A stretch of 64,000 nucleotides of DNA, taken from contig JAYWIR010000040.1 in assembly GCA_036172245.1 (NCBI GenBank), positions 248,001 to 312,000 of the forward strand, given 5' to 3'. The notes below the pieces were generated by a model. The model did not search any database and was not told where the DNA came from. It saw only the letters and a program-made list of their open reading frames with translations. The position numbers and the translations under genes were made by a program. This DNA comes from Raillietiella orientalis. Its lineage: Eukaryota. Positions 5,295-50,459 of this stretch are shown here, piece by piece (within the stretch, counting starts at the first letter, position 1; each line of letters starts with the position of its first letter).

Positions 5295-5320
5295 AATAAA
5301 CGCCCCGGCGTGTCCGGGTG
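5295..5320 (+). terminator. Representative 3'-terminal signal: AATAAA + CGCCCCGG-N5-CCGGGTG hairpin (14 copies in the window)
   Basis: Follows every non-B ORF2 stop + U-rich UTR and precedes an abrupt switch to another element; function is inferred. Confidence 0.7.
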
Positions 5321-5324
5321 AGAA

Positions 5325-5870
5325 ATCTCCTGCGCTTGTTCTGCAGAGATCACATGGATCTCCTGCAGCAGCGCAAGGTCGAACGATCCTAGAATGGCGG
5401 CCATGTCTCGCCTTCTGCCGGCGTCTGTCATGCCGTTCACGTTCCAAACGGCGATGCGCAGACGACGGCGTGAGGGGATTACCGGCAATACTGCCGGGAA
5501 GATGACGGTGTGGGGAAACCCGCCTCTTCCGAGGCGGGTGAAATGACCATTAGGATTTCAGCCTCCTCAGGCACCTTGGGTACCTTTCCGGCTTCAACCC
5601 CCTCCATCTCCTCCGTGTCTGTGCGTGGTGGTCTCTCGGGTGACGATTCCTGGGATTCTCACACGCTCATTGCACTCTCGCAGTCCGAAGTCATCTCCAC
5701 GCCTTCAGCCTGGAGAGGGGCTATCCGGGGTTTGCTGGACTTCCTTCCAGCCTTCCGGCGGGGTGCCGCGGAGATGGAAACTTGGTTTCCGGCCTGCGCT
5801 TCGGGGTCGGAAGTTACCGACTCCTCGGTGGAGGCTGGACGCCTCACTGCCTTTTTGCAAGTCTTGAAGG
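5325..5870 (-). mobile_element. ORF1 C-terminus / ORF2 start of a D-like element, bounded by two insertions
   Basis: KKAVRRPAS...PRRKAGRKS, then RRRLRIAVWNVNGMTDAGRRRD...EQAQEI; similar to 12067-12620. Confidence 0.85.
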
Positions 5871-7977
5871 TTTACACCCGGGTACGCCCGGGGCGTTTAT
5901 TGTTAAAACTCTACATCCAAAGTACAAGGCCCCGCTCACGGCCATATACACTGGACCTGCCAGGACGCCAAGACGCAGCACAGCGTAGCGTTCCTCAGCA
6001 GCGAAGGGGGATGGGGATAAAACAAAAAGAAAAATAAAAAATAAACAGACAAAAAGAAGTTGGAGGGCAGGGAAGGGATCACTGAACGCTGTGAGGAGGA
6101 CTCATCCGTTGAAGGAAGCCCTCGAGGTCATTCCGTATATTCCCCAGTTGGGGCCATCCGGCAGCTCTCCGCATGAAGCGTTGGGCGTATGGGATGACAT
6201 CCCTCGCGTGTGGACCCACTCCTTCGTTATTGGCGTCGCTCCATGCCGCCACGATGCCACGGACACAGCACAAGGCTGCGATGGCTGCGGATGGGTGCAG
6301 TGCGTCCTTCACGAAGAGGGGCCGAAGAACGTCTCTGGGGGTGCTGCCCGTAGGGAGCCCGAGGGTCGCCCCGAACCGTTCCCAGCGGGGTCGGATGGCA
6401 GCACAGTCCACAATAAGGTGGCAGAGCGATTCCCGCTCTCCGCATTTGACACACTCAGGATCCACAGCTCCCCTTGTCCAGTAGAAGCGGCGTGCGTTGC
6501 AGGGTAAACCCAAGTGCAGCAGTAGCAACGCCGACTCTTGCCACTTAAGGGGCAGGATCCTGGATTCCTTCAGTACCGGGGGCCACTTCAGCACATCCGT
6601 AGGGATGGCGAGCAGCTCGCCCCATCTCATCAATCCACGCGGCTGGACCCTCGGGGTCGTGGCGTCCGCCAGTTCTCCTGTGGTCCAGCCGCTTAACATC
6701 TTCTCCCTGCCTGCAATCTGGCAGGTGACTTGCCACCTCGGCTTCTGGCGATCCTGAAGCGCCCTCAGGAGGTAGGGCATCGCCTTTGCAAGGGGGGTCG
6801 TCAACGCCCACCTCCGACTTCGGGGAAATCCCAGTATTTCCCGCAGGGTGCGGATGGCGTATGGGCCGATTCGCAGGCAGTTCATATTGTTTTCACTCCT
6901 CCGGTTCTGCTTAGCCCATGTGCCAGCAGACTCCTCCAACCAGGCGGAGGAGTTGACGGGGCCACAAATCATCCAATCGTTTGTCTTCGCCAGGGTTGCT
7001 ATGCGTCCGAGCATAAGGCCGCATATTCGGATCTTCCGGCCAGGGCACAGAAGAAACGACGCGAGTCCTTCGCATCGGGACAGACGCCTGGCGAGGAGGC
7101 ATGCCGGAACGCACCAAGGGGTGCTCCACATCTTCGCTGCGATGGCAAGGGTTCGCCACCGCAGCTGGATTTCCACGCGCTCCAGCGTCAGGAGGCCAAG
7201 GCCGCCGTCCCGACGCGGAGCGCACAAGTCCTTCAGAGGGACTCGGGGCCTACCCTTGCCCCAAAGGGCTATGCGGAGGAGGTTCCTTGTCCTCTTTTTG
7301 CATTCTCTGAGGGCGGAGCAAACAAAAAGCAAGAAGCGGAGGATGGGGGCCGCAAAAGCGTTCCAAAACGCGGCCTGTTCCGGCAAGTGAAACTTCCCTT
7401 CCAAGAACGGGCCGATCGATGTCTCAACTTTTTGAAGACAGCTGGACCACGCTTCCGCAGGGGAGTGGTCACCCAACGGCACACCAAGGTACTTGAGGCA
7501 CCTCGCCGTGGGGATCCCCAGACGGACCCAGTCCTGCTGCCCTGCAAACGCTGCACCTACTGGCACCACCAACGACTTCGCCCTGTTGACCTGCAGTCCG
7601 GTCCCACGGCTGAGCAGATCGAAGAAGTCTCCGACCGCCTTCGCCGGGGTAGACATAGGTAACAGGAGAAGAAGGTCGTCGGCATAGGCTGCTACGGAGG
7701 GCGTGCCGGGACACGAGCTCGGCAAGGACGCCAAAGTCACCATGTAGGCTCTCAGAACCAACTCAAAGTAGGTGCTGAAGAGCAGGGGACTCAAGCTATC
7801 TCCCTGCCTGATGCCCCGCCGCACCGTCACGCCATACACCTTCTGACTACTGAAAAAGATGGAGATAATCGCATTCCGCCAGCAAGAGCGCAGGTAGGTA
7901 ATCAAGGAGGGTGGGAAGCCCATGCGACCCAGGAGATTCAACAAAAGCCCCTGGTCAACACAGTCGAACGCCTTGTG
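5871..7977 (-). mobile_element. Family C, 3' half (RT from KAFD to 3' terminus); uninterrupted frame 7944-6079
   Basis: RQGDSLSP, YADD, CVKC..HLIVDC; AATAAA+hairpin at 5901-5875; very similar to 10000-12066. Confidence 0.92.
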
Positions 7978-8090
7978 CGCTCTAAGGTGGACGTGTTTTT
8001 TTGGTGCTCCTCGTGCCAGGAAGTCTCCCCCAGTGCAAGCGTCGTGTGGTTCGGTGGTCGATCAGGCAGCGATGCCTGACGCGATCGACG
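7978..8090 (+). mobile_element. Family D 5' terminus (5' UTR and first ORF1 codons MPD)
   Basis: ggacgtgttttt...ggtgctcctcgtgcc...ggtggtcgatcaggcagcgatgcctgac matches the reverse complement of 23600-23700. Confidence 0.85.
7989..8000 (+). promoter_or_regulatory. Representative 5'-terminal motif GGACGTGTTTTT (candidate internal promoter; 8 copies/variants)
   Basis: Lies within ~5-12 nt of the 5' junction and upstream of the ORF1 ATG in families C-G; function is inferred. Confidence 0.5.
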
Positions 8091-8754
8091 GAGTCGATTC
8101 CGGACCTACTTCTGGACTGCGGTGTCCTACAAGGACTGTGGCGTAGGCTGGCAACAGCACTAATGCATCCCGTGGACACCTCAAGAGACTTGCTGCGACG
8201 ATTTTTCACGCCGAGCGGGCTGTCACTAAGCGCAAGGATTGCAACCATAGGTTGCATACGCGCGATAGTTTCCGTCCGCCAGGCGTTGGTAATCAACGGA
8301 CAGCACCATGAGGTCATCAGCAAAGCATCCTTCTACATGGGAGCATCCGCTAGATGGCCTCATTTGACAGAGGAGACAAAAAGGAATCTCGCCGCAATAC
8401 ACCGCCGGTTTACACACCCTCAGCAGCGGCGAACCCCGTGATCATTGCCCTACCCTCCATAAACTAATTTTGTATTTTCTTTTTACACCCGCGTCCCCAT
8501 AGGCTCCGGAACATTTGAGGTGCTCATCGTTTAAATCCCCGTGAGTACGGAGCCTAACCAAAAACCCGTTACCCTTCCCTCCAGTTTTTGATTTTTGTTT
8601 GTTTCCCCTCATTCCTCCCACGCTGCGAGCGGTTTGTTTACCAGGCCTGCGTGCCGGTAATTTTTCTATGTTCTCTGTCGTTCTGTTGGTTGGGGACATT
8701 GTCCCTGACCAGTTTATTATTATTAATAAACGCCCCGGCGTGACCGGGTGATAA
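8091..8754 (+). mobile_element. 3' terminal fragment of an A/E-like element
   Basis: LLLDCG.LQGLWRRL...IHRRFT C-terminus, U-rich UTR, AATAAA+hairpin 8725-8750. Confidence 0.85.
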
Positions 8755-11700
8755 ATTTCAATCTCCGCCGGCTAACATGTGAGCCGGAAACACAGGTGAA
8801 CGCGATGAACAAGTTGTGCGCCGCCATGCGTGCGCGCAACTTGTTCGCGGGTGAGAGAGGAATGGTCCGCAGCATCGACCACGTCTTCCTCGACGCTGAC
8901 CTGTGTTCATGGGTCGGCAAACGGGGGAGGGTTGCGTCAACCTTTTCGGACCATTCCCGGTTAATTTTCGAGATGCGGCTTTGCGACAAAAAACCGCCAT
9001 CCAGGGACTGGCGTCTGCCAGGGGACTGGACGCGACTCTCAGGTGCGAAGGAACACCTTCGCGAATACCTGAGAGGCGTCACGCTCCGGAATCTCCAAGA
9101 CTGGGACCTTTTTAAGGAATCGGTCCGGGAATTCTGCGAGCAGTTCCCCCTGGACCGCCTGCCCTCCGGATTCGGCGAGGGTCCTCGCAACCATTCGGCC
9201 TATTTACAGGCCCGAAGGTACGAGCGAACCCCTAATGTCCGTCGCCTGGCCGAGTACCGCGCCGGGGCCAAACGCCAAGCCTGGCAATCCGGGTCGGTCA
9301 GCTTGCTGGACGACCAGGGCCGGGAATGTTCGTCCCCGGCGTCGGTACGGCATCTCGTGCGGAGTTATTATTCCTCCCTTTACGCCAGGGCGCCCCCGGA
9401 TCAAGATGCCTCTCGGCTATTGCTTCCGGATGGTGCCCCGGCAATAGGGGAGGAGGAGTCGTTAAGCCTCGATGAGCCTTTTACCACCGGCGAAATTCTC
9501 GCCGGTATCAAAAGGCTCAAGAGGCGGAAAGCTCCAGAGGAAGACGGCTTGCCCGCGGAGTTCTATCAGAGCTTCGCGGAAGAGCTGGCACCCCTGCTGC
9601 TTCAGCTGACAAGGCTGATCCGAGACGAAGGCGATGTTCCCGCCTCGTTTCGGTCAGCCAGAGTGAGGCTCCTTCCGAAAGGGGGAGACCTTAGGAATTT
9701 GAACAACTGGCGTCCGATCACGATTGTGAATACGGACGGCAAGTTGGTTGCCGGGCTATGGGCTTCGCGTCTGGGGCAGGTGGCAGACTCCATTATTAGT
9801 CCGGAGCAGACATATGCTGTTCCCGGGCGAAGTATGGATGCCAACCTCTTCTTCGCGAGCACATGGATGCACGCGCAGAGGTGTCAAAAGGAAGGGAAAG
9901 GAAAAATCGGCAACCCCACTTTGGGGCCGCCAGCAGGGCAGGGAATGGACTCCCGGGCGGGGAAGGGGGCCTTAGCGCTCGCAGTCGATCTCCATAAGGC
10001 GTCCGACTGTGTTGACCAGGGGCTTTTGTTGGAGCTCCTGGTTCGCATGGGCTTCCCACCCTCCCTGATCAACTACCTGCGCTCCTGCTGGCGCCATGCC
10101 ATCATTTCCGTCTCTTTCAGCAGTCAGAAGGTGCATGGCGTGCCGGTGCGGCGGGGCATCAGGCAGGGAGTTGGTGCTGAGAGCCTACAGGGTGACTTTG
10201 GCCTCCTTGCCGAGCTCGTGTCCCGGCACGCCCGCCGTAGCAGCCTAGGCCGACGACCTTCTGCTTCTGTTACCTATGTCCACCCCGGCGAATGCGGTCG
10301 GAGACTTCTTCGATCTGCTCAGCCGTGGGACCGGACTGCAGGTCAACAGGGCGAAGTCGTCGGTGGTGCCAGTAGGTGCGGCGTGGGCAGGGCACCAGGA
10401 CTGGGTCCGTCTGGGGATCCCCACGGCGAGGTGCCTCAAGTACCTTGGTGTGCCGTTGGGTGACTACTCTTCTGCGGAAGCGTGGTCCAGCTGTCTTAAA
10501 AAGTTGAGACGGCGATCGGCCCGTTCCTGGAAGGCAAGTTTCACTTGCCGGAACGGGCCGCGGTTTGGAACGCCTTCGCGGCCCCCATCCTCCGCCCCTT
10601 GCTTTTTGTTTGCCCCGCCCCCAGAGAATGCAAAAAGAGGACGAAGGACCTCCTCCGCATCGCCCTTTGGGGCAAGTGGAGGCCCCGAGTCCCTCTGCAG
10701 GACTTGTGCGCTCCGCGTCGGGACGGCGGCCTTGGCCTCCTGACGCTGGAGCGCGTGGAAATCCAGCTGCGGTGGCGAACCCTCGCCATCGCAGCGAAGA
10801 TGTGGAGCACCCCTTGGTGCGTTCCGCCCCGTCACCTCGCCAGGCGTGTCCCGATGCGATGGACTCGCGTCGTTTCTTCTGTGCCCTGGCCGGAAGATCC
10901 GAAGATGCGGCCTTATGCTCGGACGCATAGCAACCTTGGTGAAGACGAACATTTGCATGGTTTGTGGCCCCGCCAACTCCTCCGCCTGGTTATGAGTCTG
11001 CTGGCACATGGGCTAAGCTGAACCGGAGGAGGTTAAACCACATAAACTGCCTGCGAATCGGCCCATACGCCAACCGCACCCTGCGGGAAATACTGGAATT
11101 TCCTCGGAGTCGCAGGTGGGCGTTGACGACCCCCCTTGCTACGGCGATTCCCTACCTCCTGAGGGCGCTTCAGGATCGCCAGAAGCCGAGGTGGCAAGTC
11201 ACCTGCCAGATCGCAGGCAGGGAGAAGATGTTAAGCGGCTGGATCACAGGAGAACTGGCGGACGCCACGACCCCGAGCGTCCAGCCGCGTGGATTAATGA
11301 GATGGGGCGAGCTGCTCGCCATCCCTACGGATGTGCTGAAGTGGCCCCCGGTACTAAAGGAATCCAGGATCCTGCCCCTTAAGTGGCAAGAGTCGGCGTT
11401 GCTACTGCTGCACTGGGGATTACCCTGCAACGCACGCCGCTTCCACTGGACAAGGGGAACTGTGGATCCTGAGTGTGTCAGGTGCGGAGAGCGGGAATCG
11501 CTCTCCCACCTTATTGTGGACTGTGCTGCATCCGACCCCCCTGGGAACGGTTCTGGGCGACCCTAGGGCTCCCTACGAGCAGCACCCCCAGAGACGTTCT
11601 TCGGCCCCTCTTCGTGAAGGACGCACTGCAGCCAGCCGCAGCCATCGCAGCCTTGTGCTGTGTCCGTGGCATCGTGGCGGCATGGAGCGACGCCAATAAC

Positions 11701-12066
11701 GAAGGAGTGGGTCCACACGCGAGGGATGTCGTCCCATACGCCCAACGCTTCATGCGTAGAGCTGCCGGATGGCCCCAACTGGGGAATATACGGACGGACC
11801 TCGAGGGCTTCCTTCAACGGATGAACCCTCCTCACAGCGTTCAGTGATCCCTTCCCTGCCCTCCAACTTCTTTTTGTCTGTTTATTTTTTTTTATTATTT
11901 TTTTTTTTGTTTTATCCCCATCCCCCTTCGCTGCATAGGAACGCTACGCTGGGCTGCGTGTCGGCGTCCCGGCAGGTCCAGTGCATATGGCCGTGAGCGG
12001 GGCCTTGTACCGCGGATGTAGAGTTGTTTTTTAAAAATAAACGCCCCTGGCGTACCCGTGTGTAAA
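8755..12066 (+). mobile_element. Family C ORF2 from endonuclease (D)FNL to 3' terminus, frameshifted
   Basis: IDHVFLD, SDH, KAPEEDGLPAEFY, NNWRPIT, CVRC..HLIVDC; AATAAA 12036-12041 + degenerate hairpin. Confidence 0.92.
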
Positions 12067-15000
12067 CCCCCAAGGCTGGCAAGAAGGCCGTAAGGCGTCC
12101 GGCCTCCCCTCAGGAGTTCCCCACTTTCGACCCCGAGGTGGAGGCCGGAAGCGCAGCCTGCGTTTCCACGGCACCGCGCAAGAAGGCTGGACGTAAGTCC
12201 ACAAAGCCAAGGAAGCTCGTCTCCCCCGTCGAAGGGGAAGAGATGGCTTCCGCGAGCGAGGGCGCCATGAGCGTGGGAAACTCTCGGGACCCGTCGACCG
12301 AGAGACTCCCACGCGCGGACACGGAGGGGATGGAGGGGGTGGAGGCCGAACAGGTGCCTCAGGTGCCTGAGAAGGCCGAAACCCCCATGGACATCCCGCC
12401 CGCCTGGCAAGAGGCGGGCTCCCCCACACCTTAATCTTCCCAGCAGTAATGCCGGGAATCTCCTCCCGCCGTCGTCTGCGCATCGCCGTTTGGAACGTGA
12501 ACGGCATGACAGACGCCGGCAGGAGACGAGACATGGCCGCCCTTCTCGAGTCCTACGACCTTGCGCTGCTGCAGGAGATCCACGTGATCTCTGCAGAACA
12601 AGCGCAATAGATCGAACGGATCTCCGGAGGGCGGCTATGGTACAGGCGTGGGAGAGCGAAAACTTGCGGTGTCGCCTACCTGCTTCGGCCAGCCGTCGAG
12701 GCCGCGGCTAGGGGCGTGCGGTTCGACGATCACGGTCGTGTCGGCCAGCTGACTCTCAGGTGGTCCGAGTCGATTGATCTGATCGTCACGAACGTGTACG
12801 CACCGAGCGGCAAGGACCTGATGAACAGAAGGGCGAGGAAAGAGCTTTTCCTTGCCCTCCGGCGAGACTGGCTGAGCGAAGCAGGCGTGCGGAATGCCCA
12901 TCTGGTTGCTGGCGATTTCAACGTTCTCCTGAAACCAGATGAGCAGAATCCTGTGCGTGACCTGGTCAACGAGGTGTGCATGGCGGTGCACACCTGTAAT
13001 CTGTTGGCCAGTGCACCGGGGATGGAAGGCAGCATTGACCACCTGTTTCTTGACGAGCACCTGTGCCCTCGCGTGGACAGGCGCGGGAAGTTACCGTGCG
13101 AGCTGTCCGACCACCGCCCGCTAGTCCTCGAAATCCATCCGCGCGACAGGGGTCCCCCTCGTCAGCGTGGCGTCTCCCAGGAAAATGGCTGAAGCTCCCG
13201 GACGCGGCGGAACATCTCCGCACGTTCATACGGAGCTTCAGGCTGCGGACACTCCAGGATTGGGACCGCTTCAAGCGGTCGGTCCAGGAGTTTTGCGACC
13301 AGTTCCCTCTGCACCGCCTACCTACGGGTTTTGGGACCGGGGTCCTTAAGGAACGAGCCTACCTGCAGGCCTGTCGTTACGCCAGGACCCTCGACATCCT
13401 CAGGCTGGCGGAATACAAAGCGGGAGCCGAGAGGCAAGCATGGCACTCCGGATCGGCCAGCTTACTGGACGATCAGGGCCAGGAGCACACGGCACTTGCT
13501 TAAATCCGCGGCCTGCTGCGGAGTTACTACTCCTCCCTGTATGCCAGGGCACCTCCGGATAGAAACGTCTCACGACTCCTGCTTCCGGAAAGCGCTCCAG
13601 CGATCGCAAAGGAGCAGAGAAAGACCCTCGACGAGCCTTTCACGATGGACGAGATCCTCTCGGCCATCGGAAAGCTCAAAAGGCGAAAGGCTCCAGGGGA
13701 GGACGGCCTGCCCGCGGAGTTTGATCAAACTTTCGCGGCTGAGCTTAGCCCCCTGGTACAGCAACTCACCTTGCTGATACGCGAGACAGGTGACGTTCCC
13801 GCCTCGTTTCGTTCGGCAAAGGTGCGGCTCCTCCCTAAGGGAGGAGATCTGAGAAGCGTGAACAACTGGCGTCCCATCACAATAGTGAATGCGCACGCGT
13901 AGTTGATAGCCAAGATGTGGGCAGAGCGTCTGGGACGGGTTACCAACATCTTCATCAGCCCGGAACAGACATATGCTGTTCCCGGGCGAAGCATGGAGCC
14001 GAACCTGTTACACGCTTCCACCTGGCTAGAACTCCAACATGAAAGGAGCTTGGTGCGCAACCGGAATTCCGGTGCGTGCGCCGGCAAGGGGTTGGATGGT
14101 CGGGTGGGGGAGGGAGCCCTTGCGGACGCAATCGACTTGCGAAAAGCATTCGATTGCGTCGACCAGCATCTCCTTCTGGAGATTTTGGAACGCTTGGGCT
14201 GAACGGCCTCATTAGTAACCTATCTGCGCTCCTGCTGGCGCGAAGCGCTCAACAATGTTACTTTCAGCGGGCAGACCGTGCACGGCGTGCCGGTGCGGCG
14301 TGGGATCCGGCAGGGAGACAGCCTGAGCCCCTTGCTCTTCAGTACCTGCTTTGAGTTGGTACTGAGAGAGCACAGGGGAACTCTGGCGCACCTACCGCCC
14401 GACTGTCCCGGTACGCCGGCCGTTTCAGCATACGCGGACGACCTTCTGCGGCTGCTCCCTATGTCCACCCCGGCTGCGGCGGTCGAGGAGTTCTTCGACC
14501 TGCTGCATAGGGGAACCGGACTTACGGTGAACAGGGCGAAGTCGTCCGCGATGCCAGTTGATGCGGCGTGGGCAGGGCAGCAGGACTGGGTCCGTTTTGA
14601 GATCCCCACGGTGAGGTACTTCAAGTACCTTGGTGTGCCGTTGGGGGACTACTCCCTTGCGGAAGCGTGGTCCAGCTGCCTCCAAACAGTAGAGACGGCG
14701 ATCGGCCCGTTCCGACGCGGCAGGTTTTTCCTGCCTGAACGGGCCGCGGTTTGGAACACGTTCGCGGCTGTTCTCCTCCGCTTCCTTCTTTTTGTTTGTT
14801 CCCCCACAGGGAGGGACAAAAAGCGGACGAAGGACCTCCTCCGTATCGCCCTTTGAGGCAACGGGAGGGCCCGAGTCCGCCTAAAGGACTTGTGCGCTCC
14901 TCGTCGGGATAGTGGTCTGGGCCTTCTGACGCTGGAGCGGCTGGAGCTTCAGCTCCAGTTCCGCTTGTCGGCACTCGTTCCAGAGTTGTCATGCACCTGT

Positions 15001-37300: not shown

Positions 37301-37373
37301 GCGGCCGTAAGTGGGGCCTCGTACTACGTTTTTGTAAAGTTTCAATAAACGCCCCGAGCGTACCCTGATCGAA
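34353..37373 (+). mobile_element. Family H (C-like) ORF2 from EN-RT linker to 3' terminus, decayed
   Basis: KAPGEDGLPAEFF, HKAFD, YADD, CTRC..HLTVDC; AATAAA 37344-37349 + degenerate hairpin. Confidence 0.9.
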
Positions 37374-37472
37374 ACACCAAATTCCCGGGGCGGGCGGTGC
37401 ACGGGGAACTCCTCGCACAACTCCCGCACCGAGACTTTCATGCGGTCCCAGTCATGGAGATTCCGGAGCGTC
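37374..37472 (-). mobile_element. ~100-bp remnant of family G ORF2 linker (continuation of 43007-45611)
   Basis: TLRNLHDWDRMKVSVRELCEEFPVHR..FG; shares the target duplication with 43007. Confidence 0.8.
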
Positions 37473-37553
37473 GAGCGGACCTGTCTTTTCGTTGCTCCTG
37501 AGTTCCATTTCCGTTGGTGCTTGTGCGTGGTGTGGGTGGAGGATTAGGCAGAA

Positions 37554-39212: not shown

Positions 39213-42200
39213 TGCCGGGAATCGCCTCTCGCCGTCGTCTTCTGATCGCCTGTTGGAACGTGAACGGGCTAAGCGACGACGGCAAGAGGCGTGACGTGGC
39301 CGCCACCCTGGCATCCTTCGACCTGGTGCTGCTGCAGGAGATCCACGTGATCTCCGCAGATCAAGCCCGGGAGATCGAACGGATCTCGCGTGGGCGGCTG
39401 TTGTGGCGTTGCGGCACCGCGAAATCAAGCGGTGTCGTCTTCCTGCTTCGGCCAGCCATCGAGACCGCAATAAAGGACGTTCGGTTCGATGACGCAGGTC
39501 GCGTCGGTCAGCTGACTCTCAGCTGGTCCGACTCTATCGACCTGGTCGTCACCAACCTATACGCTCCTAGCGGAAATAACGCGTTGAAGGCGAAGGCAAG
39601 AAGGGAATTCTACCTTGCCCTGAGACGCGATTGGCTGACCGATGCAGGAGTTCGCAAAGCGCACCTGATCGCAGGTGATTTCAACCTGCGCCTGCTTTCA
39701 GGTGCGCCGGATACGCTGAACGACCGCGTCAACGAGTTGTGCGCAGAAATGAACACGCGCAACTTGTTGGCAGGGGACACGGCCATGGAAAGCAGCATCG
39801 ATCACGTGTACCTTGATCAGCACCTATGCTCTCGGGTGGGCAGGCGCGGCAAGGTACCACCCGAGCTGTCGGACCATGGTCGGATCATGTTCGAAGTGCG
39901 TCCGCGCGACAAGGGCCCCCCCTCGTCAGCGTGGCGTCTGCCAGGGGACTGGCTGAAGTTTCCCGACGCGGCGGAGCACCTCCGCGCGTTTATTCGGAGC
40001 TTCAGGATGCAGACACTTCAGGACTGGGACCGCTTCAAGCGGTCGGTCCAGGAGTTCTGCGATCAGTTCCCCCTGCATCGCCTACCTGCGGGTTTTGGGG
40101 AGGGGCCGCGTAACGACAGGTGCTATCTTCAGGCCCGACGTTACGCGAGAACCCCCGACATGCGCAGGTTAGCAGAGTACCGAGCGGGAGCCGAGAGGCA
40201 AGCCTGGCAATCCGGATCGGCCAGCTTGCTGGACGACCAGGGCCGGGAGCACTCGGTTCCCGCTCAGAAACGCGGGATAGTAAGAAAATTTTACTCCTCC
40301 CTGTACGCCAGGGCGCCTCCGGAGCGAGACGTCTCACGAATTCTGCTTCCGGAAGGTGCTCCAGCGATCGGGGAGGAGGAGAAAAGAAGCCTCGACGAGC
40401 CTTTCACGATGGACGAGATCCTCTCGGCCATCGGAAAGCTCAAGAGGCGGAAGGCTCCAGGGGAGGACGGCCTGCCCGCGGAGTTTTACCAAACTTTCGC
40501 GGCTGAGCTTACTCCCCTGGTACATCAGCTCACCTTGCTGATCCGTGAAACAGGTGACGTACCCACCTCGTTTCGTTCAGCAAAGGTGCGGCTCCTCCCG
40601 AAGGGAGGAGACCTAAGGAGCATGAACAACTGGCGTCCCATCACAATAGTGAATGCGGACGCCAAGTTGATAGCCAAGATGTGGGCAAAGCGCCTGGGAC
40701 GGGTCGCCAACATCTTCATCAGCGCGGAACAGACTTATGCTGTTCCCGGGAAGGAGCATGGAGGCGAACCTGTTCCACGCTTCCACATGGTTAGAGCTCC
40801 AACAAGGAAGGGGCTTATTGAGCAGCCGGAATTCCGGTGCGTCCGTTGGCGGGAGACGGAACGGTTGGGTGGGGAAGGGAGCCCTTGCGGTCGCTGTCGA
40901 CTTGCGTAAAGCATTCGACAGCGTCGACCAGAATCTCCTGCTGGAGCTTCTGGAACGCGTGGGCTTCCCGGCCTCTTTGTTGGCCTACCTGCGCTCCAGC
41001 TGGCGCGACGCGCTCATTAATGTTCTTTTCAGCGGGCAAACCGTGCACGGAGTACCGGTGCGACGCGGCATACGGCAGGGAGACAGCCTGAGCCCCCTGC
41101 TCTTTAGCGCGTTTTTCGAATTGGTGCTGAGAGCGTACAGGGAGACTCTTGCGCACCTGCCGTGCGATTGCCCCGGTACGCCTGCGGTTTCGGCGTACGC
41201 GGACGATCTTCTGCTGCTGCTGCCTATGTCCACCCCGGCCTCGGCGGTCGAGGACTTCTTCGACCTGCTGAGTCGTGGAACAGGACTGACGGTGAACAGG
41301 GCGAAGTCGTCCGTAATGCCAGTCGGAGCGGCGTGGGCAGGGCAGCAGGACTGGGTCCGTTTGGGGATCCCCACGGTGAGGTACTTCAAGTACCTTGGTG
41401 TGCCGTTGGGGGACTACTCCCCTGCGGAAGCGTGGTCCGGCTGCCTTCAGAAGGCTCAGGCGGCGATCGGCCCGTTCCAGGACGGCAGGTTCTACCTACA
41501 GGAACGGGCCGCGGCGTGGAACGCGTTTGCGGCCCCCCTCCTTCGCTCCTTGCTTTTTGTTTGCCCCCCCTCAGCGGAGTCAAAGAAGAGGACGAAGGAC
41601 CTCCTGAGGATCGCCCTTTGGGGCAGAGGGAGGCCCCGAGTCCGTCTTTCGGACTTGTGCGCTGCTCGTCGGGATGGTGGTCTGGGCCTCCTGACGTTGG
41701 AGCGGCTGGAGCTACAGCTCCAGTTCCGAGTTGTTGCCTTTATGGCAGGAAATTGGTGCACCCCTTGGTGCTTCCCTGCACGTCTCCTCGTCGAGCGGGC
41801 CACCGGCAATGCGGGACTCTCGTCCTACTTTGCACTCCGAAGCCCCATCTGCCACTGCGGACTTCAACTTCGGAGGGCGGCCAAGCTCGTGAAGAACAAC
41901 TCGGCGCGGATCCTCGTACGCCCCGCGAACGGTCCTGCCTGGTTGCAGGAAACCGTCCGCACGTGGGCGATGATTCAGGAGCAGAGCCCGCAACACGAGC
42001 GAATAGCTCTGTTCGGGCCGCATGCCCGCCACACGCTCCGAGAAATCATCGAGAATCCCCGAAGGAGAGCGTGGGCACAAAGAACCTCCCTTGCTGCGGT
42101 ACTGCCTACCCTACGGGAACATCTGGGCAGCGACGTCGCGGCACAATGGGAGGTAACTGTGAAGATCGCCAGCAGGGCAAAGAAGATCGGGGATTGGAGA

Positions 42201-42794
42201 ACGGGTCAGCTCACCAACGCTGCGACCCCGAGGACCACCCCAAATGGACTTTTGCGCTGAAGAGAGCTACTGGATGTTCCAGAGGAACATCTCGAGTGGC
42301 CTCCGGTGCTCATGGACTCGCGCACCCTCCCCATGAAGTGGCAACAGTCGGCACTGATGGTGTTGCATTGGGGGCTTCCTTGCAACGCCCGCCGACACCA
42401 CTGGACGCGGGGGGGTGTCAACCCTAATTGTGTCAGGTGCGGGGAGAAGGAATACCTCCCCCACCTGTTAGTGGATTGTGTTGCCCTCCATCCCTTGTGG
42501 GAACGCTTTGCCGCAGCCCTGGGGATCCCCGGAGGCAACCCCAGAGACGCTTTGCGCCCCCTCTTCGTCCGTGACGCCCTGCCTCCAGCGGCCTCGCTTG
42601 CAGCCCTGTGCTGCCTACGCGGGATCATCGTGGCATGGAGCAAAGCGACGGGAGGATCCAGCGACAGGGATGCCAACGTGTATGCTGCCCGTTTCCTCAG
42701 GATGGCGACGCGATGGCCCCATCTGGAACCACACAAGCAGAAACAGCTTGCCGGCATCCTCCAGAGGATGACGGACCCTCCCAGCAGACTGTGA
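39212..42794 (+). pseudogene. Family F ORF2 (APE-RT-CCHC, ~1190 aa), one frameshift near 40750 and one stop at 42258-42260
   Basis: ORF pieces 39212-40909, 40737-42260 and 42306-42794 carry all motifs in order. Confidence 0.9.
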
Positions 42795-43006
42795 TCCCTT
42801 CCCGCTCCCTCCCTGATTTTTGTTTATTTTTTGTTTTCTTTTTGTTTCGTTCCCCCTCCCCTCTGCTGCCGAGGTCGACCGCGCAGGTCTGCGCACCGGT
42901 AGCCCGGCAGGCTATATCTTTCCAGGGCGTGGCTGGACTACTGGCCCAGTCACAGATTGTATAAGTTTATTCGTTAGAATAAACGTCCCGGCGCACCCGG
43001 GTTTCA

Positions 43007-45611
43007 ATGGAGATTCCGGAGCATGACGCCTCCCAGTACTTGGCTGAGATGTTCCGCCGCACCTGAGATGCGCGTTTAGTCCCCGGGGAGACGCCATGCC
43101 CTGGATGGTGGTCCTTTGTCGCAAGGCATAACCTCGAATATCAACCGGAAGTGGTCCGATAGCGTCGACGGAAGTTTCCCTCGTCTGCCGACCAGTGGGC
43201 ACAGGTCGGCGTCAAGGAAGACGTGGTCTACTCTTTGGACCATTCCCAGTAGGTCCCCCAACAAGTTGCGCGTGCGCATAGCAGCGCACAGCTCATTGGC
43301 TGCGTCTTTTTGCCCGCAAGGCACACCTGAGAGCAGGCGGATGTTGAAATCCCCACCGATCAGATGCACTTTGCATACGTTTGTATCCGCCAGCCAGTCG
43401 CGTTTAAGGTTTGCGAGGAACCGGGAACGTTCCCCGTACCCGCATCCTCCGCTCGGAGCGTACACATTGGTCACGACAAGGTCGATCGAGTCGGGCCACC
43501 TAAGGATGAGCTGGCCAACCCGACTGTGGTTGTCGATGCGTACGTCCTTGACGAAGGCGGCGACTGCTGGCTTCATAAAAAAGGCGACGCCACAGGTGTT
43601 GCGAGCGCCGCATTGCCAAAACAGACGACCCCCTGCGATCCTCTAGATCTCCTGGGCGTTCTCCGCGGTGATCACGTGGATCTCCTGCAGGAGCGCCAGG
43701 TCGAAGTCGCGCAGGGTGTCGGCCGTATCCCGCCTGTTGCCGTCGTCGCGCAGCCCGTTGACGTTCCAGCAGGCTACGCGGATCCTACGGCGACAGGCGA
43801 GCCCAGGTGTTAATCCTGGGTAAGTGGCAATGGGACTCCCGCCACATTGTCGGACTGGACGCTAGGAGAAGGGGGTGCGTCGCGCACCGCTTCTCCCTCC
43901 TCCACGGGGGCCGAGTCTTCGTCAGGGCGTGCAGAGGAAGGGGGGTTTCACCCACCTGTACTTCCTCCTCCATGGGAGTCGCCAGCTGCAAGGTGTCGGG
44001 GAATGAGATATTCCCACCCTCGCCTCCCACGCTGCCAACTTCCCCCTCGGGGGCCGATTCATCCTCCTCCTTATTGATCCGGATGCGTTTCCTGGGATTC
44101 TGCGACTTGCTTCCCGTCTTCTTTGGTGGCGCCTCCGTTGAGGAGGAAGCACTTCCGGCATCCGGTTCGGCCTCACCTGCATCCGGAGCCTTCCTCGCGG
44201 GCGGCCTTCGTAAGCCTTTCCGGGAGTTCTTTTCACGGCCTTGCAGTTCAGCCGTGAGTTCTTCCACCGCCTGCTGGAAGGCGGCCTCCTCGATCGCGTC
44301 GAGCGCAGCGCGCGGTTCCCCCTGTTTCCCCAGAGGGTTCGCCATCGACCGTCGCGGCTTCGGCGGACGCGAGGGGTGGATTGCTCCCCCGGCGGCGGCA
44401 CCGGGTGCCTCCACACGTTCTAATTTTACCGAACACGCGCGGAGCTTTTCGCGGCACGGTTTTTCGCTCTGCGTTTTTGTTTTCACCGAGTTTCGTTCGG
44501 GACTCCCGGGTTTTCTTCGTGGCTGTACCGTCTGCCAGCCTTCGCCGTCACCAGCATCGTCGGGAGTGTTCTCAACCGACGTTTGCTGTGAGGGCTTAGG
44601 GACTGGCATCTGGGTGTTTACAGCCTGTTTCTGTTTATGCGTCTCTCCCGTGCGTTTCCCCTTTGCCTTTTTTGCAGCGGATGGGGGCGGGATTTCTCTT
44701 CTTGGGCACACCTTACGGATGTGGCCCTTATTTCCACATAAGTGGCATTGGATGTTAGGGCACCGCTTTTTTAGATGTAGCATCGCAATGGCCACAATAC
44801 TTGGGCTTACCCACGTACCAAACATCGACTTTTTCTTCGCCGATATTCAGTTTGTGGGGAAGCCAACCATTCTCTGGTAGGGTGACGCGGGCTGCGGCCA
44901 TCCCACTGAATAGCCTTCCGTAAGTTCGGAAGACATTGGATTTGGCCCAATACGCGTGCACACTACTATGCTTCGACAACTCCTCATGGACGCTGGTTTT
45001 GTCCATTCGGAGTGATACACCTGTGAGGTGGACCACGACGGAGCGGTCCTCCGTCACAGGGAAGATCCTGCGGCCGTCCACCGTAATAGGGGTGTTCAGC
45101 AGTCGCTGCACCAGACTTGCCTCTTTGCATGTCAGCTCAACTCGCTGGCCCCCACTAAGGACGGATAGGCCTAAAAGGTCTTCCTCCCTCACGTTAAACC
45201 TTTGCAGCTCCATTTCGAAGGAGCGTGCAATTTTTTCATCAAACACACTGCCTACCTTATAGATCAGAGACATCTTGTAGCCGCTGTCCTTGTAGGCAGT
45301 CTGCTCCGCTACTGCATCCGGAGATGGTGCAGCAACGACGTCACTCCAACTCCTCGCCAATGGCGAAGAGGGTCGCGAAGGGGCGGTTGCCCCCGATTCC
45401 GATGGGGCAGGTGCCCCGGATTCCGTGAGGGCGGATGCCCCCACTTTCATTGGTGGAGGAGAGCATGTCGCTTCTCCTCCTCCAACTTCCATCGCGGTGT
45501 CCTCAGGCATTTCTGCCATGGGACACCGGTGCTCCCACACACCAGACAACCAACGAAAAGCTTCCCACTAACCAGTCCGTGGAGCGATGCCAAACCACGT
45601 CCGCTCCCTAG
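43007..45611 (-). mobile_element. Family G (C-related), 5' part: 5' UTR, frameshifted ORF1, endonuclease
   Basis: ggacgtggttt at ~45602-45592; MAEMPEDTAMEV; CHLCGNKGHIRKVC; CWNVNG, GDFN, SDH. Confidence 0.9.
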
Positions 45612-46233
45612 AACGACACCGGGAAGAGTAAATCCTGCGTGTGCCAGGTGTGGGGAGCGGGAGTCGCTCCCCCACCACTTATTTGATTGCCCTGCCGTCC
45701 GGATTTTTTGGGGTGTCTTAGAACGGCCCTTGGGATACCGGATAGTAGCAATCCCAGAGGCGTGTACAGTCTTCTCTTCGTGCGGGACGCCCTCAGTCCA
45801 GCCACAGCCCTGGCAGCACTTTGCTGCATTCGTGGTATCGTGGAGGCCTGGAGTGATTCCGAAGATGAAGATTGCATCGTGAGAGACGTCATCGAGTATA
45901 ATGTTCGCTTCCTGCAGAGAGCTGCCCGATGGCCCTATCTGGGAAGAATGAAAATGGAACTCCAAGGCATCTTGCAAAGAATGGGCCCTCCCAGCAGTTG
46001 TCTGTGATCCCTTCCCGGCCCTCCAAACTCCTTTTGTATTTTTTTTTTCTTGTTTTATTTTATTTTTGTTTTCTCCCCCATCCCCTTCCACTGCCGAGGA
46101 GAGACACAGGGGGCTGCGTCTCGGTGTCCCGGCAGCTCCGGTTTTGCGTGGCCGTCAGTGGGGTCTTGTACCACGTTCTTGAATGACGGAAGAAATGTTT
46201 TTTAATAAACGTCCCGGCGTACCCGGGTGGCAT
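45612..46233 (+). mobile_element. 3' terminal fragment, H-like 3' UTR
   Basis: CARC..HHLFDC, U-rich UTR, AATAAA+hairpin 46204-46229. Confidence 0.88.
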
Positions 46234-46828
46234 CGACGAAACCTATAGGAAGTTGATGGAGGGGAAACTGGTCGCAGAACTCTCGGACTGAGCGTTTTTT
46301 TTGGTCCCAGTCAGCGAGAGTCTGCAGTTCGCAACAACGCAGGAATGCACCCAGATGTTCGCGCGCTCCTGCGAGTCGCAACCAGTCTCCCGGCAGGCGC
46401 AATGCTTCGTAAGGTGGACCTCTGTCGCGCGGATGGATGGTGAACACTAGCCGAGGGTGATCGGACAGCTCCGACGCGAGGGCGCCTCGAGTCCCCACCC
46501 GCGTGCACAGGTGGTTATCGAGGAACACGTGGTCGATTCTGCGTCTCACGTCGGCTTCATCGGCCAAGTTGCGTGCGTGCATCGTCGCACACAACTCGTT
46601 GACCAGTTGTGCTCTTATGTCGGGCGCTTCCGACAGCAGGCGGACGTTGAAGTCTCCCGGTATCAGATGCGCACGCCGTACGCCTGCTTCGGCCAACCAG
46701 TCTCTTTGCAGGGCTTCGAAGGCAGTGCGTTCTCCGCGCCTGTGGCTGATGCAGGGCGAGTATACGTTCGTCAGCACGACGTCGATCGATTCGGACCACT
46801 TTAGGACAAGTTGCCCAACTCGTCAAAC
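46234..46828 (-). mobile_element. Endonuclease/linker fragment (FD..VGQLVL to LPIGFV)
   Basis: NVYSP, GDFN, IDHVFLD, SDH. Confidence 0.88.
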
Positions 46829-47243
46829 TGCAGCCAGTCGCTGTAATAGCAGCTCTCTGCTGCGTACTCGGTATTGTGGCAGCTTGGAATGGATCCGACG
46901 AACAGAAGGAATGCCATAAAGTATGCAGCTCGATTTCTGCGAATAGCATCCCGATGGCCCCACCTGGGAAATCTGCACAAGGACCTCGTCGGCATCCTGC
47001 AAAGGATGGAAGCTCCACAAAACGGAGCGTGATCCCTTCCCGGCCCTCCCAATGACCAGTGTTTCTACATTTTATTTTTTTTATTTTTGTTTTTTTCCCT
47101 CACCCCATCCGTTGACGTGGAGTGTTATGTCGGTCTGTGCACTGACCACCAGACAGCTCCAAAGAACTATTGGCCGCAGCGGGGCCTTGTACCGCAAATA
47201 CTGTTAGTTTTTAAATAAACGCCCCGGCTTGACCGGGTGAAAA
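46829..47243 (+). mobile_element. Short, heavily 5'-truncated insertion (ORF2 end + 3' terminus)
   Basis: LCCVLGIVAAW..WPHLG; AATAAA+hairpin 47214-47239. Confidence 0.85.
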
Positions 47244-47369
47244 CATCGAACTGTACACTGCGCACTGCCTTTGCGACGGCTGGCTCCAGCAGGAAGGCCA
47301 CTCCGCGGGAGTGGTCTCCACCGGATCGCCAAAGTAGCCTTCCCCTGTGAGCCTCTCCATCTCCTGCGC
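47244..47369 (-). mobile_element. Endonuclease fragment (AQE..ERL to VRSVQFD)
   Basis: GRLLWRSGG..GVAFLL..VRSVQFD; upstream continuation of 46234-46828. Confidence 0.8.
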
Positions 47370-49158
47370 TGGGAGGGGCAGTCCGACTGGATCCGCCTGG
47401 GGATCCCCACGGGCAGGTACCTAAGGTACCTTGGCGTGCTGTTGGGCGACTTCTGCATCTCAGAAGCGTGGTCGGACTGCCTTCGGAAGGCAGAGCGTGC
47501 ACTTGGTTCGTTCTCAGGAGGCGAGTTCGTCTTGCCGGAACGGGCCAGCATCTGGAACACCTTCGTTGCCCCCCTCCTCCGCCCCCTGTTTTTTGTTTGT
47601 CCATCCCCCCAGGAAGTCAAAGTCTGGGCGCAGCGCCTTCTACGCAAAACGTTGTGGGACGCTGCAAGATCCCGCGTAAGACTTAAATACTTGGTGGCGC
47701 CGCGTCAGGATGCAGGCTTGGGCATCCTGGACTTAAAAAGCATCGAGCTGCAGCTGCAGTTTCGAATGCTGCGGCTCTGTGCCAAGCTGTGGTGTACGCC
47801 ATGGTGCTTACCAGCACGACTTATACTAAGGTGCTGCACGGGAAGCGAGGGACTGTTTTCGTTGCTACCCCACTTCCGGCACACCAGAATAGGGTTTGGC
47901 TTCCCGCTGAGGCAGCTGTCCTCACTGCTGGAAGCCCAATGTTGGATCTCCTGCCACCCCATGAACATTAATGCATAACGGCAGGAATCTTTTTCATCGT
48001 GGGCAGCTTCCGCAGGAACGCGCCCGGAAGATCTTCGACGCCTGCTATTTCTCCTCAGTCATCAAATGGACGAAGTCATGCATGACAAGAAGTTGTCGGA
48101 TCGTCTGGCCGCCACACCACTCGCCGCAGCGCTGTCTGCCCTCAGGGCAAGCAACGACGGTTGCCTACCGGCGGAATGGGAGTTCTCCTGCAAAATAGCG
48201 GGAGTCAGTAAGCTCCTCGGCAGCTGGACGACAAAGGAGCTGGTGCAAGCCGCCACACCTCGGAATCGGACGAAGGGCCTGCTTCGGTGGAGCGAACATT
48301 TAAGTGTACTCCCCGAAGAGATAGTGATCCCCCCGTTTGTTTGGACAGCTCCGTGTTCCCCCTAAAGTGGAAACAAAAATGTGCTGCTCTTTTTACATTG
48401 TGCATTACACTGTAATAGGCAGCGAAGCATCGTTTCCGGGGGAGCTGCTCCGCCAAACTGTTTGAGGTGCGGGGAGATCGAGTCTTTTCCGCACCTCTTG
48501 ATGGACTGCGGTGACCTCCGTGAACTGTGGCGTAGGCTGATTCCAGCCATCCTGCCGCAGGGAGGCACTGCCATTGATGTGCTGCGGCGCTTCTTCAGGA
48601 GGAATGGATTTTCGGTAGGCGCGATTGTCGCAACCATGTGTTGCATTCTCGCCATCGTGAAGGCCCGCTACGCACTGGAGTTGTCAGCGCAGCGAAGGGA
48701 GGCTCACCGGTTTGCAGCAGAATCCATGAAAAACGCTGCTAGGTGGTCTCATCTTCGTGACAAGGTCAAAGAGGACATCGCCGGCATCCACCGCCGGTTT
48801 ACCGACTTTTGGGAACGGCTTAATCCGGTGACCACTACGTCCTGAAGCCCACCCATACCCCTACCCGCTCGCTCTGCTAAAATACCGGTGCCATTACTAT
48901 TATTCCGGAGAGAACAAGAGCGATCCAAAAGCCCCTTGTCCCCGCGTCCCCCGTTGATTTCTTTTTCTTTTGTTTTTGTTTGTTTGTTTTCCCAGTTCCC
49001 ACAAACCGTTCTGTGTAATTCTGACCTGCGTGCTAGCAGTATTCTCCTGATACTTGTGCCGTCGTCGGCTGGGGGCATAGTACCCAACTGGTTTATTTTA
49101 TATATTTATTTCTGTTGTATTTATATGAAATAAACGCCCCGGCGTGATCGGGTGAGAA
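47370..49158 (+). mobile_element. Family A, 5'-truncated copy with 3' terminus
   Basis: Close paralog of 3535-5324; AATAAA+hairpin 49129-49154. Confidence 0.92.
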
Positions 49159-50459
49159 ATCTCCTGGACGTCCTTTCCCCTGAGGGCGTGAACCTCTTAG
49201 AGAACTGCCAGGTCGAAAGGTCGCAGGGTGTCGGCCACGCTACGCCTCTTGCTTTCGCTACGCAGCCCCTTGACATTCCAACAGGCTATACGCAGTTGCC
49301 GGCAAGAGTTGATTCCACGCATCATGCTAATGATGGTGGTGGCGATTGTGTAGCCGCATCCTGTTCGGGAGGCGGCTGGTCGATGTCCACCTGCATGGAC
49401 GGCGTTTCGGCAACGACCGGAAGGTCGGCAGCCGGACTGAGGTCGATCAGAAGATCGGACCGGGCGGTTTCCACGTAGGAATCCCGCGACCTCGCGGACA
49501 TCGGCTCCTCGCTACACGAGCGCATTTCCTCCTCCTCAGCCTGAGGGGGAGCGACGCGCATAGGGTTGCGGGACTTCCGGCCCGCCTTCCTCTTCGGGAG
49601 GGCGACGGTGGGAGCGTTTCCGGTTTTCGCCTCGAACACTGAAGTTTCCGGTCCTTTGGCTTCCGCCGGTCATCTCACGGCCTTCTTTGCAGCCTTAGGC
49701 GGCTGCATTAAGGTGGCCGCAAGTTCCTCCGCCGCCTTCGCGAAGTTTTTCTCGTCGCTGCTGCTCGCGTTCTTGTCGCAGATTTCCTGCGGCGGTTCCG
49801 CGGCGTTTGCGACAGTTGCGGAAGTCGCGTTTGCCGATCGACGTTCGATCGACGGAACGCGCTCGATGTTAACGCGGCATTCCTTTCTTATTTCGCGCGG
49901 CGTAAATTCTTTTGCGCCGTTTGCGGTTTTTATTGATTTGCTCGCGTTCTGATCTGTAGATTTTTTAGGTTTTTCATTATTGGAATTTTGATTTTTTGTT
50001 TTTTCGTTTGCGACTAATTTCCAGCCTTTTTCGCGGACGGTTAGATCAGAAGTCTCCTTTTGATTCTCCTGTTCCTTTTGTTTGGCTTCTGATTTTAGCT
50101 GTTGGTCGCTGTATGTTTGTTTTTCTGCCTTCTTCGCCTCTTTTAAAATAGCGGTTTGAAGCGTTGTAGCGGCCTTTTTCTGGCACACAACGTTTATGTG
50201 GCCCTTAGCGCCGCACGTTGGGCATGTGGCGTCCGGGCATCTCTTTTTGAAATGACCAAACGTGTTGCACAGCCCGCAGTATTTTTCTTTCCCTACGTAC
50301 CAGAGATCAACGAGCTTGTCGTTAATCTCCAGCTTGTGGAAAATTTCAATGTTTTCGCGGAGAGTTACGCGAGCGGCAAGTTGCCCATTAAATGCGCCTC
50401 TATATGTGAAGGCGTTGCGCTTCTTCCACATCGCGTAAATCTCTGCGAATTTATTGATT
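49159..50459 (-). mobile_element. Family I: ORF1 (AT/lysine-rich, 2x CCHC) and ORF2 start
   Basis: CGLCNTFGHFKKRC, CPTCGAKGHINVVC; TGATG at 49324-49320; CWNVKG. Confidence 0.88.

Follow-up and report, generated by a model that had tools for sequence, protein, structure and literature searches.

Zepp, in Chlorella and Coccomyxa, and ZeppL-1_cRei/L1-1_CR, in Chlamydomonas, are long interspersed nuclear elements (LINEs) of the L1 clade that insert into their own copies (PMC3446292 and PMC8226300, in the parts available to us). The same parts of these papers describe nested clusters of the Zepp type that consist of LINEs only, hold many 5'-truncated 3' parts and are GC-rich relative to the genome. 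The 3' end of Zepp and L1-1_CR is poly(A) (Table 1 of PMC3472496, a source available in part). Neither a coding-motif target at the nucleotide level nor an antisense rule is given for Zepp in the available parts of PMC3446292, PMC8226300, 10.1101/2022.06.16.496473, 10.1101/2025.03.28.645958 and 10.1101/2024.02.27.582245, a set to which the primary descriptions of Zepp do not belong. Here we analyse a stretch of 64,000 nucleotides (nt) on one contig of Raillietiella orientalis (the window, to which all counts refer) and one LINE family within it, family A, whose two intact 3' ends lie antisense at the same position in the endonuclease (EN) genes of two different sister LINEs. Like a Zepp cluster, the window is 64 kb of nested elements with an apurinic/apyrimidinic-type (APE) endonuclease and a reverse transcriptase (RT), and nothing else. 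It differs from Zepp and L1-1_CR in that a fixed hairpin box with a tail of 3-5 nt takes the place of poly(A), and in that the array combines at least six diverged families; the likeness drawn here is one of architecture.

Target-specific members of the Tx1 and R1 clades are APE-type LINEs, each of which enters a multicopy target at a single defined sequence and forms a reproducible 3' junction there (PMC4640811, available in part), and in R1Bm the EN domain itself carries the specificity (PMC4640811 and PMC1919474, likewise in part). Keno in U2 snRNA genes, R1 in 28S rDNA and TRAS/SART in telomeric repeats are examples. Family A resembles them in being an APE-type LINE and may, like them, have a defined target, as its two intact 3' ends have the same 3' junction, but their targets are multicopy host genes or simple repeats, whereas the target proposed here is an EN coding motif of other retrotransposons, entered in antisense (n = 2). 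Tx1L is reportedly inserted in a DNA transposon, Tx1D.

Ordinary target-primed reverse transcription of the L1 type leaves 5' truncations, a short duplication, microhomology or filler at the 5' junction and, occasionally, loss of target on the 5' side. The window likewise contains 5' truncation, an 8-bp duplication and filler or microhomology at a 5' junction, but poly(A) is absent, the elements have an RNA 3' end that is fixed and of the stringent type, and both of two events fall at one homologous site. In the telomeric HeT-A/TART arrays of Drosophila, elements form head-to-tail chains in which each 3' end is followed directly by the 5' end, often truncated, of a further element. Chains of this kind run along the + strand of the window (8028-16246, 23706-30979, 34356-43007 and 50457-52704); here, however, they alternate with antisense, 3'-truncated elements, and the window contains no chromosome end. 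Family A is plausibly a target-specific, self-nesting LINE that resembles those of Zepp-type arrays and has a new type of target. A limited literature search, which is not proof of absence, found no description of a LINE that targets the EN codons of other LINEs.

Family A is present in three copies. The copies, their hosts and the sites discussed first are as follows; element coordinates, here and in the second list below, are approximate.

734-5324, + strand: family A copy 1
5295-5324, + strand: 3' box of A copy 1, with AATAAA, the GC hairpin CCCCGG..CCGGG and the tail TGAGAA
5325-5866, - strand: host 1, an H-type LINE represented by its 5' piece, with the C-terminal part of open reading frame (ORF) 1 and the EN up to ..EQAQEI, cut at the A junction
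5325-5332, - strand: target 8-mer CAGGAGAT (Q-E-I, 'site 2') of host 1, abutting the tail of A copy 1
5358-5365, - strand: unused CAGGAGAT of the catalytic LQEIH ('site 1') of host 1, followed by CCA, in a near-palindrome capable of forming a hairpin
46233-50458, - strand: host 2, holding the insert W (46826-47243, + strand) and A copy 2
47359-47366, + strand: 5' copy of the duplication at A copy 2, ATCTCCTG, followed by cgc at 47367-47369
47370-49158, + strand: family A copy 2
49159-49166, + strand: 3' copy of the duplication at A copy 2, ATCTCCTG, the Q-E-I codons of host 2 on the minus strand
51416-52086, + strand: paralog of host 2
52061-52068, + strand: empty homologous site in the host 2 paralog, GACGTCCAGAAAATCGAGAGGCTCACAGGGG
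52705-54181, - strand: family A copy 3

Copy 1 is full length by comparison with copy 3 and encodes EN (PF03372) and RT (PF00078) in ORFs interrupted by stops; it has no ORF1 homologous to those of the sister families. PF03372 matches A 1370-2683 (E = 1.2e-7, 32.2 bits, cut-off 24.5), as well as the sister families A2 and H, and PF00078 matches A 2684-3535 (E = 6.9e-19). Copy 2 is 5'-truncated, starts at about position 2800 of A and has its 3' end in common with copy 1, to which it is 89.6% identical (1597/1782 aligned positions). Copy 3 retains only the 5' 1.48 kb (87% identity to copy 1); at 52704 the 3' end of another element stands in place of its 3' part, so that copy 3 is silent on the target of A. 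Self-BLAST of the window detected no LTR-like direct repeats bounding A. Protein searches returned only distant, unnamed eukaryotic RT relatives (the best at most 63% identical, the others at most 32%), to which no clade or taxon was assigned. A zf-RVT domain (PF13966) was detected in the sister family Y (E = 4.9e-6), fell below the cut-off in A2 and was not found in A; its presence in Y hints, by domain content, at an L1-like element.

Both intact 3' ends of family A read GGGTGAGAA/ATCTCCTG (a slash marks a junction). The 17-mer GGGTGAGAAATCTCCTG occurs exactly twice in the window (5316-5332 and 49150-49166, + strand), while none of 100 shuffles contained two or more matches to it. Directly past the 8-mer the flanks diverge, with ATCTCCTG/CGCTTGTTC at 5325 and ATCTCCTG/GACGTCC at 49159, which agrees with the initial annotation, where identical A ends followed by different hosts had been described. 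On the minus strand, host 1 reads ..FDLALLQEIHVISAEQAQEI/ up to the junction (in a longer reading WNVNGMTDAGRRRDMAAILGSFDLALLQEIHVISAEQAQEI/), and host 2 reads ..FDLAVL*EVHALRGKDVQEI/ (longer, WNVKGLRSESKRRSVADTLRPFDLAVL*EVHALRGKDVQEI/). The flank of A is thus the antisense of ..QEI codons, 33 nt past the catalytic LQEIH, at the homologous nucleotide in both hosts, as had been proposed for the second QEI of two diverged EN genes. The reading EQAQEI proposed for host 1 was recovered, but that of host 2 needs correction from EDVQEI to KDVQEI; its paralog has GEDVQKI at 51947. The two hosts are 59% identical in 200 nt of EN, and likewise upstream, in keeping with their earlier assignment to different families. 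Since the A copies are 89.6% identical and the hosts 59%, the two insertions are independent and the A copies far younger than the split between the hosts.

In both hosts the 8-mer next to A has a counterpart in an uninterrupted relative. The paralog of host 1, H2, is uninterrupted and shares 90% identity with it; the site of H2 at 12605-12612 is CAATAGAT, then CGAACGG (from 12605 onward, CAATAGAT CGAACGGATCTCC). Because H2 carries CAATAGAT at the homologous place, the 8-mer of host 1 is the host's own codon string. Host 2 belongs to another LINE family than host 1, is 5'-truncated in ORF1 and lies in three pieces (49159-50458, 47245-47366 and 46233-46825), split by A copy 2 and the antisense element W (46826-47243). 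Its paralog at 51416-52086 is 96% identical, is uninterrupted and reads GACGTC CAGAAAAT CGAGAGGCTCACAGGGG; it follows from the empty site at 52061-52068 that the flanks of A copy 2 were once contiguous. On the minus strand, A copy 2 is flanked by ..GACGTC CAGGAGAT and, at its opposite end, by CAGGAGAT GGAGAGGCTCACAGGGG. Deletion of 47367-49166 yields GACGTC-CAGGAGAT-GGAGAGGCTCACAGGGG, in which 16/17 nt beyond the site agree with the paralog, and EN protein homology runs across the rejoined host (H_EN amino acids (aa) 92-125 at 47346-47245, E = 1e-7). Judging by the rejoined sequence, A copy 2 arrived by a true insertion that duplicated 8 bp of the target site, and 3 nt (cgc) stand at its truncated 5' junction. 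The string ATCTCCTGCGC at 47359-47369 directly precedes the truncated A copy 2 at 47370, as the initial annotation had noted, and the cgc at its end is either filler or microhomology. We considered whether cgc extends the duplication, but it matches either side poorly; it may be derived from A (GCGACG in copy 1).

The position at which A stops is shared with other LINEs of the window. Fourteen elements carry a 3' box, AATAAACGCCCCGG..CCGGGTG, with a short A-rich tail (14 matches against 0.52 expected); further examples are at 47214-47243 and 52674-52704. Measured from the first A of AATAAA, the tail ends at 30-31 nt in 12/14 and at 29 and 37 nt in the other two. Tails of 3-5 nt (GAGAA, GTAAA, GAAAA..) follow the fixed hairpin box, and one family has GACAAACAAACA. 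Family A ends ..CCGGGTGAGAA, 30 nt, in both copies that have a 3' end. Because A stops where 12/14 LINE 3' ends stop, ATCTCCTG lies outside the element. Covariation in the 3' hairpin neither supported nor refuted the structure, with five conserved pairs and zero compensatory changes. This stringent-type 3' end recurs in all the families, diverged as they are, and cross-mobilisation between them could be possible.

These observations also bear on whether the two junctions are one. It is extremely improbable that a single ancestral junction was copied by recombination or gene conversion, or that the 8-mer is the 3' end of A itself or a 3' transduction. The alignment of the A copies does extend through the 8-mer (5332 versus 49166) and the window is full of recombination-prone repeats, yet the hosts need these 8 nt for their own conserved QEI codons, and the host's own copy of the 8-mer is found on the other side of A copy 2. 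Moreover, the flanks diverge right past the 8-mer, which would confine any crossover to these 8 nt, there is a 10% difference between the A copies, one of which is 5'-truncated with a 5' junction of its own, and the element ends of all families stop where A stops. The possibility that the 8-mer is the element's own end, which the initial annotation had raised against itself, is contradicted by the duplication at copy 2 and by the codons of both hosts. The ancestral-junction explanation is largely refuted here; A copies that end ..GAGAAATCTCCTG and continue into non-EN DNA would revive it.

On balance we lean towards the reading that family A (~4.6 kb, APE-type) has an integration machinery with a strong preference for 5'-CAGGAGAT^CGA-3' (the caret marks the nick) on the sense strand of sister-LINE EN genes, at ..Q-E-I/E-R. 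The A endonuclease would nick the host sense strand after the T of ..CAGGAGAT, and the freed 3'-OH would prime reverse transcription at the fixed 3' end of the A RNA (AATAAA, GC hairpin and tail ..GAGAA). Since priming would be on the host sense strand, the new A copy would be antisense to its host. A cut in the other strand 8 bp away would then give the 8-bp duplication ATCTCCTG. This reading builds on two independent junctions at the same nucleotide, on the duplication and host contiguity of copy 2 and on the fixed element end. It is also favoured by the lack of the 8-mer at site 2 in the EN genes of A and its relatives. We infer that the specificity comes from the endonuclease itself and not from RNA pairing or chromatin; the nick positions would be as drawn, and CGA past the nick may be part of the site. 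Pairing of the A tail with the primer end was considered and rejected, the complementarity being at most 1 nt.

How much sequence is recognised can be judged from sites that carry the same 8-mer. On the primed (host sense) strand, site 2 is (G/C)CAGGAGAT^, followed by CGA in the paralogs and in the Z-type and H-type elements Z1, Z2 and Hfull. The copy at the catalytic site, 33 nt upstream, is CTGCAGGAGAT^CCA. The used site GAGAT^CGA and the unused site 1, GAGAT^CCA, thus differ just past the nick. Both intact A 3' ends (2/2) lie at CAGGAGAT, which occurs 27 times in the window, and about 5/26 distinct occurrences are of the site 2 class; from these class counts, the chance of two site 2 hits if the 8-mer alone mattered is roughly 0.04. 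The initial annotation had placed a second 8-mer about 30 nt away in LQEIH. This applies to host 1 (5358-5365, 33 nt), but host 2 now reads CTCTAAGAGGTT, not CAGGAGAT, at the position of site 1. The initial interpretation is upheld in part, two independent antisense insertions at the second QEI being supported, but its suggestion that more than the 8-mer core is read is not established: site 2 was used over site 1 in host 1, and host 2 has no second CAGGAGAT. The LLQEIHVIS codons around site 1 form a near-palindrome, CTGCAGGAGATCCACGTGATCTCTGCAG, at 12563-12597, 39326-39360 and 5340-5374 (- strand); as folded DNA it has -9 to -10 kcal/mol over 35 nt, with the unused site 1 in the stem.

Site 1 also helps to assess whether RNA pairing, and not the endonuclease, sets the register. 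Under this explanation the endonuclease would be unspecific, and transcripts of A running on into the antisense-EN flank of a master copy would anneal, through the conserved AUCUCCUG, to any nicked or broken host sense strand ending ..CAGGAGAT, so that each reverse transcription would begin at one and the same junction. Homology-guided priming is known for other target-specific LINEs, the conserved 8-mer is the sole sequence common to both flanks, and the window has many one-sided junctions, as expected from priming at broken ends. We nevertheless regard it as quite improbable: a conserved AATAAA 24 nt before the element end and ends fixed at 30-31 nt in 12/14 elements point to defined RNA 3' ends, not to read-through, and the 8-mer could not separate site 1 from site 2 in host 1, as both are ATCTCCTGC on the A strand. 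A clean 8-bp duplication, as at copy 2, is typical of two staggered endonuclease cuts.

Several findings weigh against recognition of site 2 by the A endonuclease. There are two informative events, the third A copy having no 3' end, and the preference for site 2 rests on one case, host 1 being the only host with both CAGGAGAT sites. Three perfect CAGGAGATCGA sites are unoccupied (20266-20276, 31000-31010 and 24708-24718), as is a CAGGAGATCTA site in the Z-type element Z3. Unoccupied sites in the Z-type elements are:

20269-20276, - strand: site 2 (CAGGAGATCGA) in Z1
31003-31010: site 2 in Z2
43647-43654: CAGGAGATCTA site in Z3

The base past the 5' copy of the duplication is G in host 2 and C in its paralog, and the CGA part of the proposed site is for this reason not secure. 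Since the 8-mer ATCTCCTG is common in the window and is present even within A (47946-47953), it takes host contiguity to make the duplication convincing. Upstream of A copy 1 there is neither ATCTCCTG nor host 1 DNA, and a reversed internal piece of family C (1-733) reaches up to the 5' end of A at 734. Other C copies continue ..ATCTGTTGCC/AGATTTC, while the window has ..ATCTGTTGCC/GACTCGGCAGG, the latter being the 5' end of A. With this C piece in the place of host 1 and of a duplication, the event at copy 1 was not a simple insertion. The absent 3' part of host 1 was sought elsewhere in the window; no EN fragment begins near aa 88 except that of host 2 itself. The last point of this kind comes from the antisense junctions of all families, for which the other elements of the window are needed:

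1-733, - strand: internal piece of family C
5871-7977, - strand: element X'
8028-8755, + strand: element 4, A-like
8756-12066, + strand: element X2
12067-16246, + strand: H2
16247-~19977, - strand: A3
19964-23644, - strand: Z1
23706-25822, + strand: Y
25822-30979, + strand: A2, a sister family with ~70% nt identity to A
30980-34453, - strand: Z2
34356-37374, + strand: element X
37375-43007, + strand: Hfull, 5.6 kb, with ORF1 and ORF2
43008-~45600, - strand: Z3
45604-46232, + strand: I3
50457-51415, + strand: Y2
~52087-52704, + strand: the element 'el', fused to the host 2 paralog
54208 onward, + strand: family C, in tandem

The 5' half of ORF2 contains all eight antisense junctions, whatever the family, and the first ~320 codons hold seven (~aa 71, 71, 79, ~109, 285, 286, 320 and 588 in the numbering of the A2 ORF). 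A shared regional or strand preference may therefore explain part of the pattern. Taken to its end, this would mean that specificity is loose, with a regional preference for the 5' part of ORF2 and a weak preference for nicks at ..GAT^, and that the A pair is a picked-out coincidence. Besides the clustering of all eight junctions, the perfect sites that stay empty fit this explanation, as do 5/14 junctions that can be read as a primer ending ..GAT when a 1-nt shift is allowed (A twice, H2, W and I3/Y). We consider it unlikely, because, with GAT as frequent as it is (166 occurrences of GAGAT alone in the window), hits at homologous positions would not be expected, and because a second coincident pair was observed, each pair falling within one superfamily of inserts. 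In a simulation of eight junctions placed uniformly over the first 960 nt of ORF2 and scored within 1 nt, one pair had p = 0.084 and two disjoint pairs p = 0.0019.

The second pair comprises the junctions of Hfull with Z3 (43007/43008) and of 'el' with A copy 3 (52704/52705), whose positions in ..L(Q/E)/DWD differ by 1 nt. The inserts have ~70% identity to each other, and their hosts come from different families. Z3 reads ..CTCCGGAATCTCCA/ up to the tail of Hfull, and past this point the Hfull homolog has GGACTGGGAC (host sense ..CTCCA^GGACTGGGAC). A copy 3 reads ..AGTGAGCTCG/ up to the tail of 'el', and past the corresponding point A copy 1 has AGGACTGGGAC (host sense ..GCTCG^AGGACTGGGAC). 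The combined form of this reused H-type site is ..CTC(C/G)(A)^(A)GGACTGGGA. Site reuse thus seems to be real and to extend beyond family A, of which the pair is the cleaner case owing to its identical junction and the duplication in one event. A2, whose tail is GACAAACAAACA, has its 3' end attached in antisense to the Z2 EN gene, 23-28 nt beyond site 2 of that gene. Most antisense junctions in the window are one-sided, host DNA being present on both sides only for A copy 2 and W. The duplication at W is 8-10 bp, C(G/A)TC(A/G)AACTG, with differences that are CpG-type transitions.

A broader and rather unlikely extension of site recognition is that these LINE families form a guild living on each other. 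Each EN would read a conserved sense-strand motif in the ORF2 of the others (..QEI^ER for A, ..L(Q/E)^DWD for the H type), and antisense insertion would build a polar, LINE-only array. Family A would be spared by its own nuclease through AAEIE (GCCGAAATCGAA), and purifying selection on the EN of its victims would preserve the target. At site 2 the EN genes of A, A3 and copy 3 have GC(C/T)GAAATCGA and that of A2 has GCCGATCTGCA; the EN genes of A and its relatives (GCCGAAATCGAA or similar) lack the 8-mer there. Known target-specific LINEs take refuge in multicopy host genes, simple repeats or telomeres, and Zepp-type LINEs pile into their own clusters. If true, recognition of the motif by family A would be a concrete sequence-level mechanism for self-nesting, centromere-like arrays, and a new natural APE-endonuclease specificity aimed at a short, selection-protected EN coding motif. 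It would also be a case of parasitism of one transposable element on another with built-in self-immunity.

Data from outside the window were searched for further junctions. The 3'-end pattern of A matched 0 loci in metagenome_contigs. The general 3'-box pattern matched one locus in metagenome_contigs, a chance match in GC-rich coding DNA without LINE features, and one in genome_contigs, in a metagenome-assembled genome of Caulobacteraceae, which was also taken as chance. One sequencing run (X1) contains 32% of the words sampled from 3500-5900, and two others (X2 and X3) contain next to none. For 46900-54300, 103/130 contigs of X1 are less than 95% alike and therefore come from a relative or from other copies. 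Among the X1 pieces listed, none spans an A junction, and among the loose ends listed, the single contig at the A 3' end (49160) continues TTCAATCTCCGCCTGCT, the junction type of 8755/8756, and not A in QEI. The X1 pieces are no evidence either way on the target of A.

The window has ~58% GC and is filled throughout with eukaryote-type non-LTR retrotransposons (APE endonuclease and RT), nested and chained, among which self-comparison and tblastn resolved at least six diverged families. In Pfam searches the long ORFs matched Exo_endo_phos and RVT_1, with zf-RVT in one family, and zf-CCHC was found in gag-like ORFs upstream in two families, C and Z. The array is polar, 13/14 intact 3' ends being on the + strand. 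All elements on the - strand except X' lack their 3' part and are cut exactly at the 3' end of a + strand element joined in antisense (5324/5325, 16246/16247, 30979/30980, 43007/43008, 46232/46233 and 52704/52705). The 5' ends of these - strand elements face, head-to-head, the 5'-truncated starts of the next + strand chain (~733/734, 7977/8028, 23644/23706, 34356-34453, 45600/45604, 50457/50458 and 54181/54208). Simple nested insertion is insufficient for this polar architecture, which could stem from the paired priming of the two ends of a break or from terminal additions.

Family C (gag-like zf-CCHC ORF, EN and RT) forms a head-to-tail tandem with a period of 5614 nt and 91% identity (1-733 and 54208-64000). 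A copies 1 and 3 each stand head-to-head with a C copy that is 5'-truncated, the point within C being different in the two cases; for copy 3, 26 nt lie between them (54182-54207). Two composites, 89% identical to each other, each consist of an X element whose 3' end is joined to an H element (5325-7977, - strand; 9993-12612, + strand). In both composites the H part is 5'-truncated at the same position of ORF1, and the A insertion is present in one only; the two go back to a chimeric unit that was copied in its entirety or to the duplication of a DNA segment. The Z-type elements at 20854-23644 and 31589-34300 (both - strand) have two tandem ORF1-like ORFs that are ~40% identical to each other. 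The upstream one, together with the 5' untranslated region, has 88% nt identity to the single ORF1 region of Hfull (33007-34453 versus 37374-38821), and this alignment suggests that the 5' region of Z-type elements may be chimeric.

At 51416-52704 the host 2 paralog is joined in sense (~52086/52087) to the last ~600 nt of the LINE 'el'. The pair has the look of a single element that has lost a large internal part, between a point 17 nt past the QKI site and the C-terminal zinc-finger region. At 8755/8756, element 4, with the tail GATAAA, is followed directly and in sense by an element whose 5' truncation falls exactly on its GDFN codons (TTTCAATCTCCGCC), and one contig of the related sequencing run X1 has the same junction with one mismatch.

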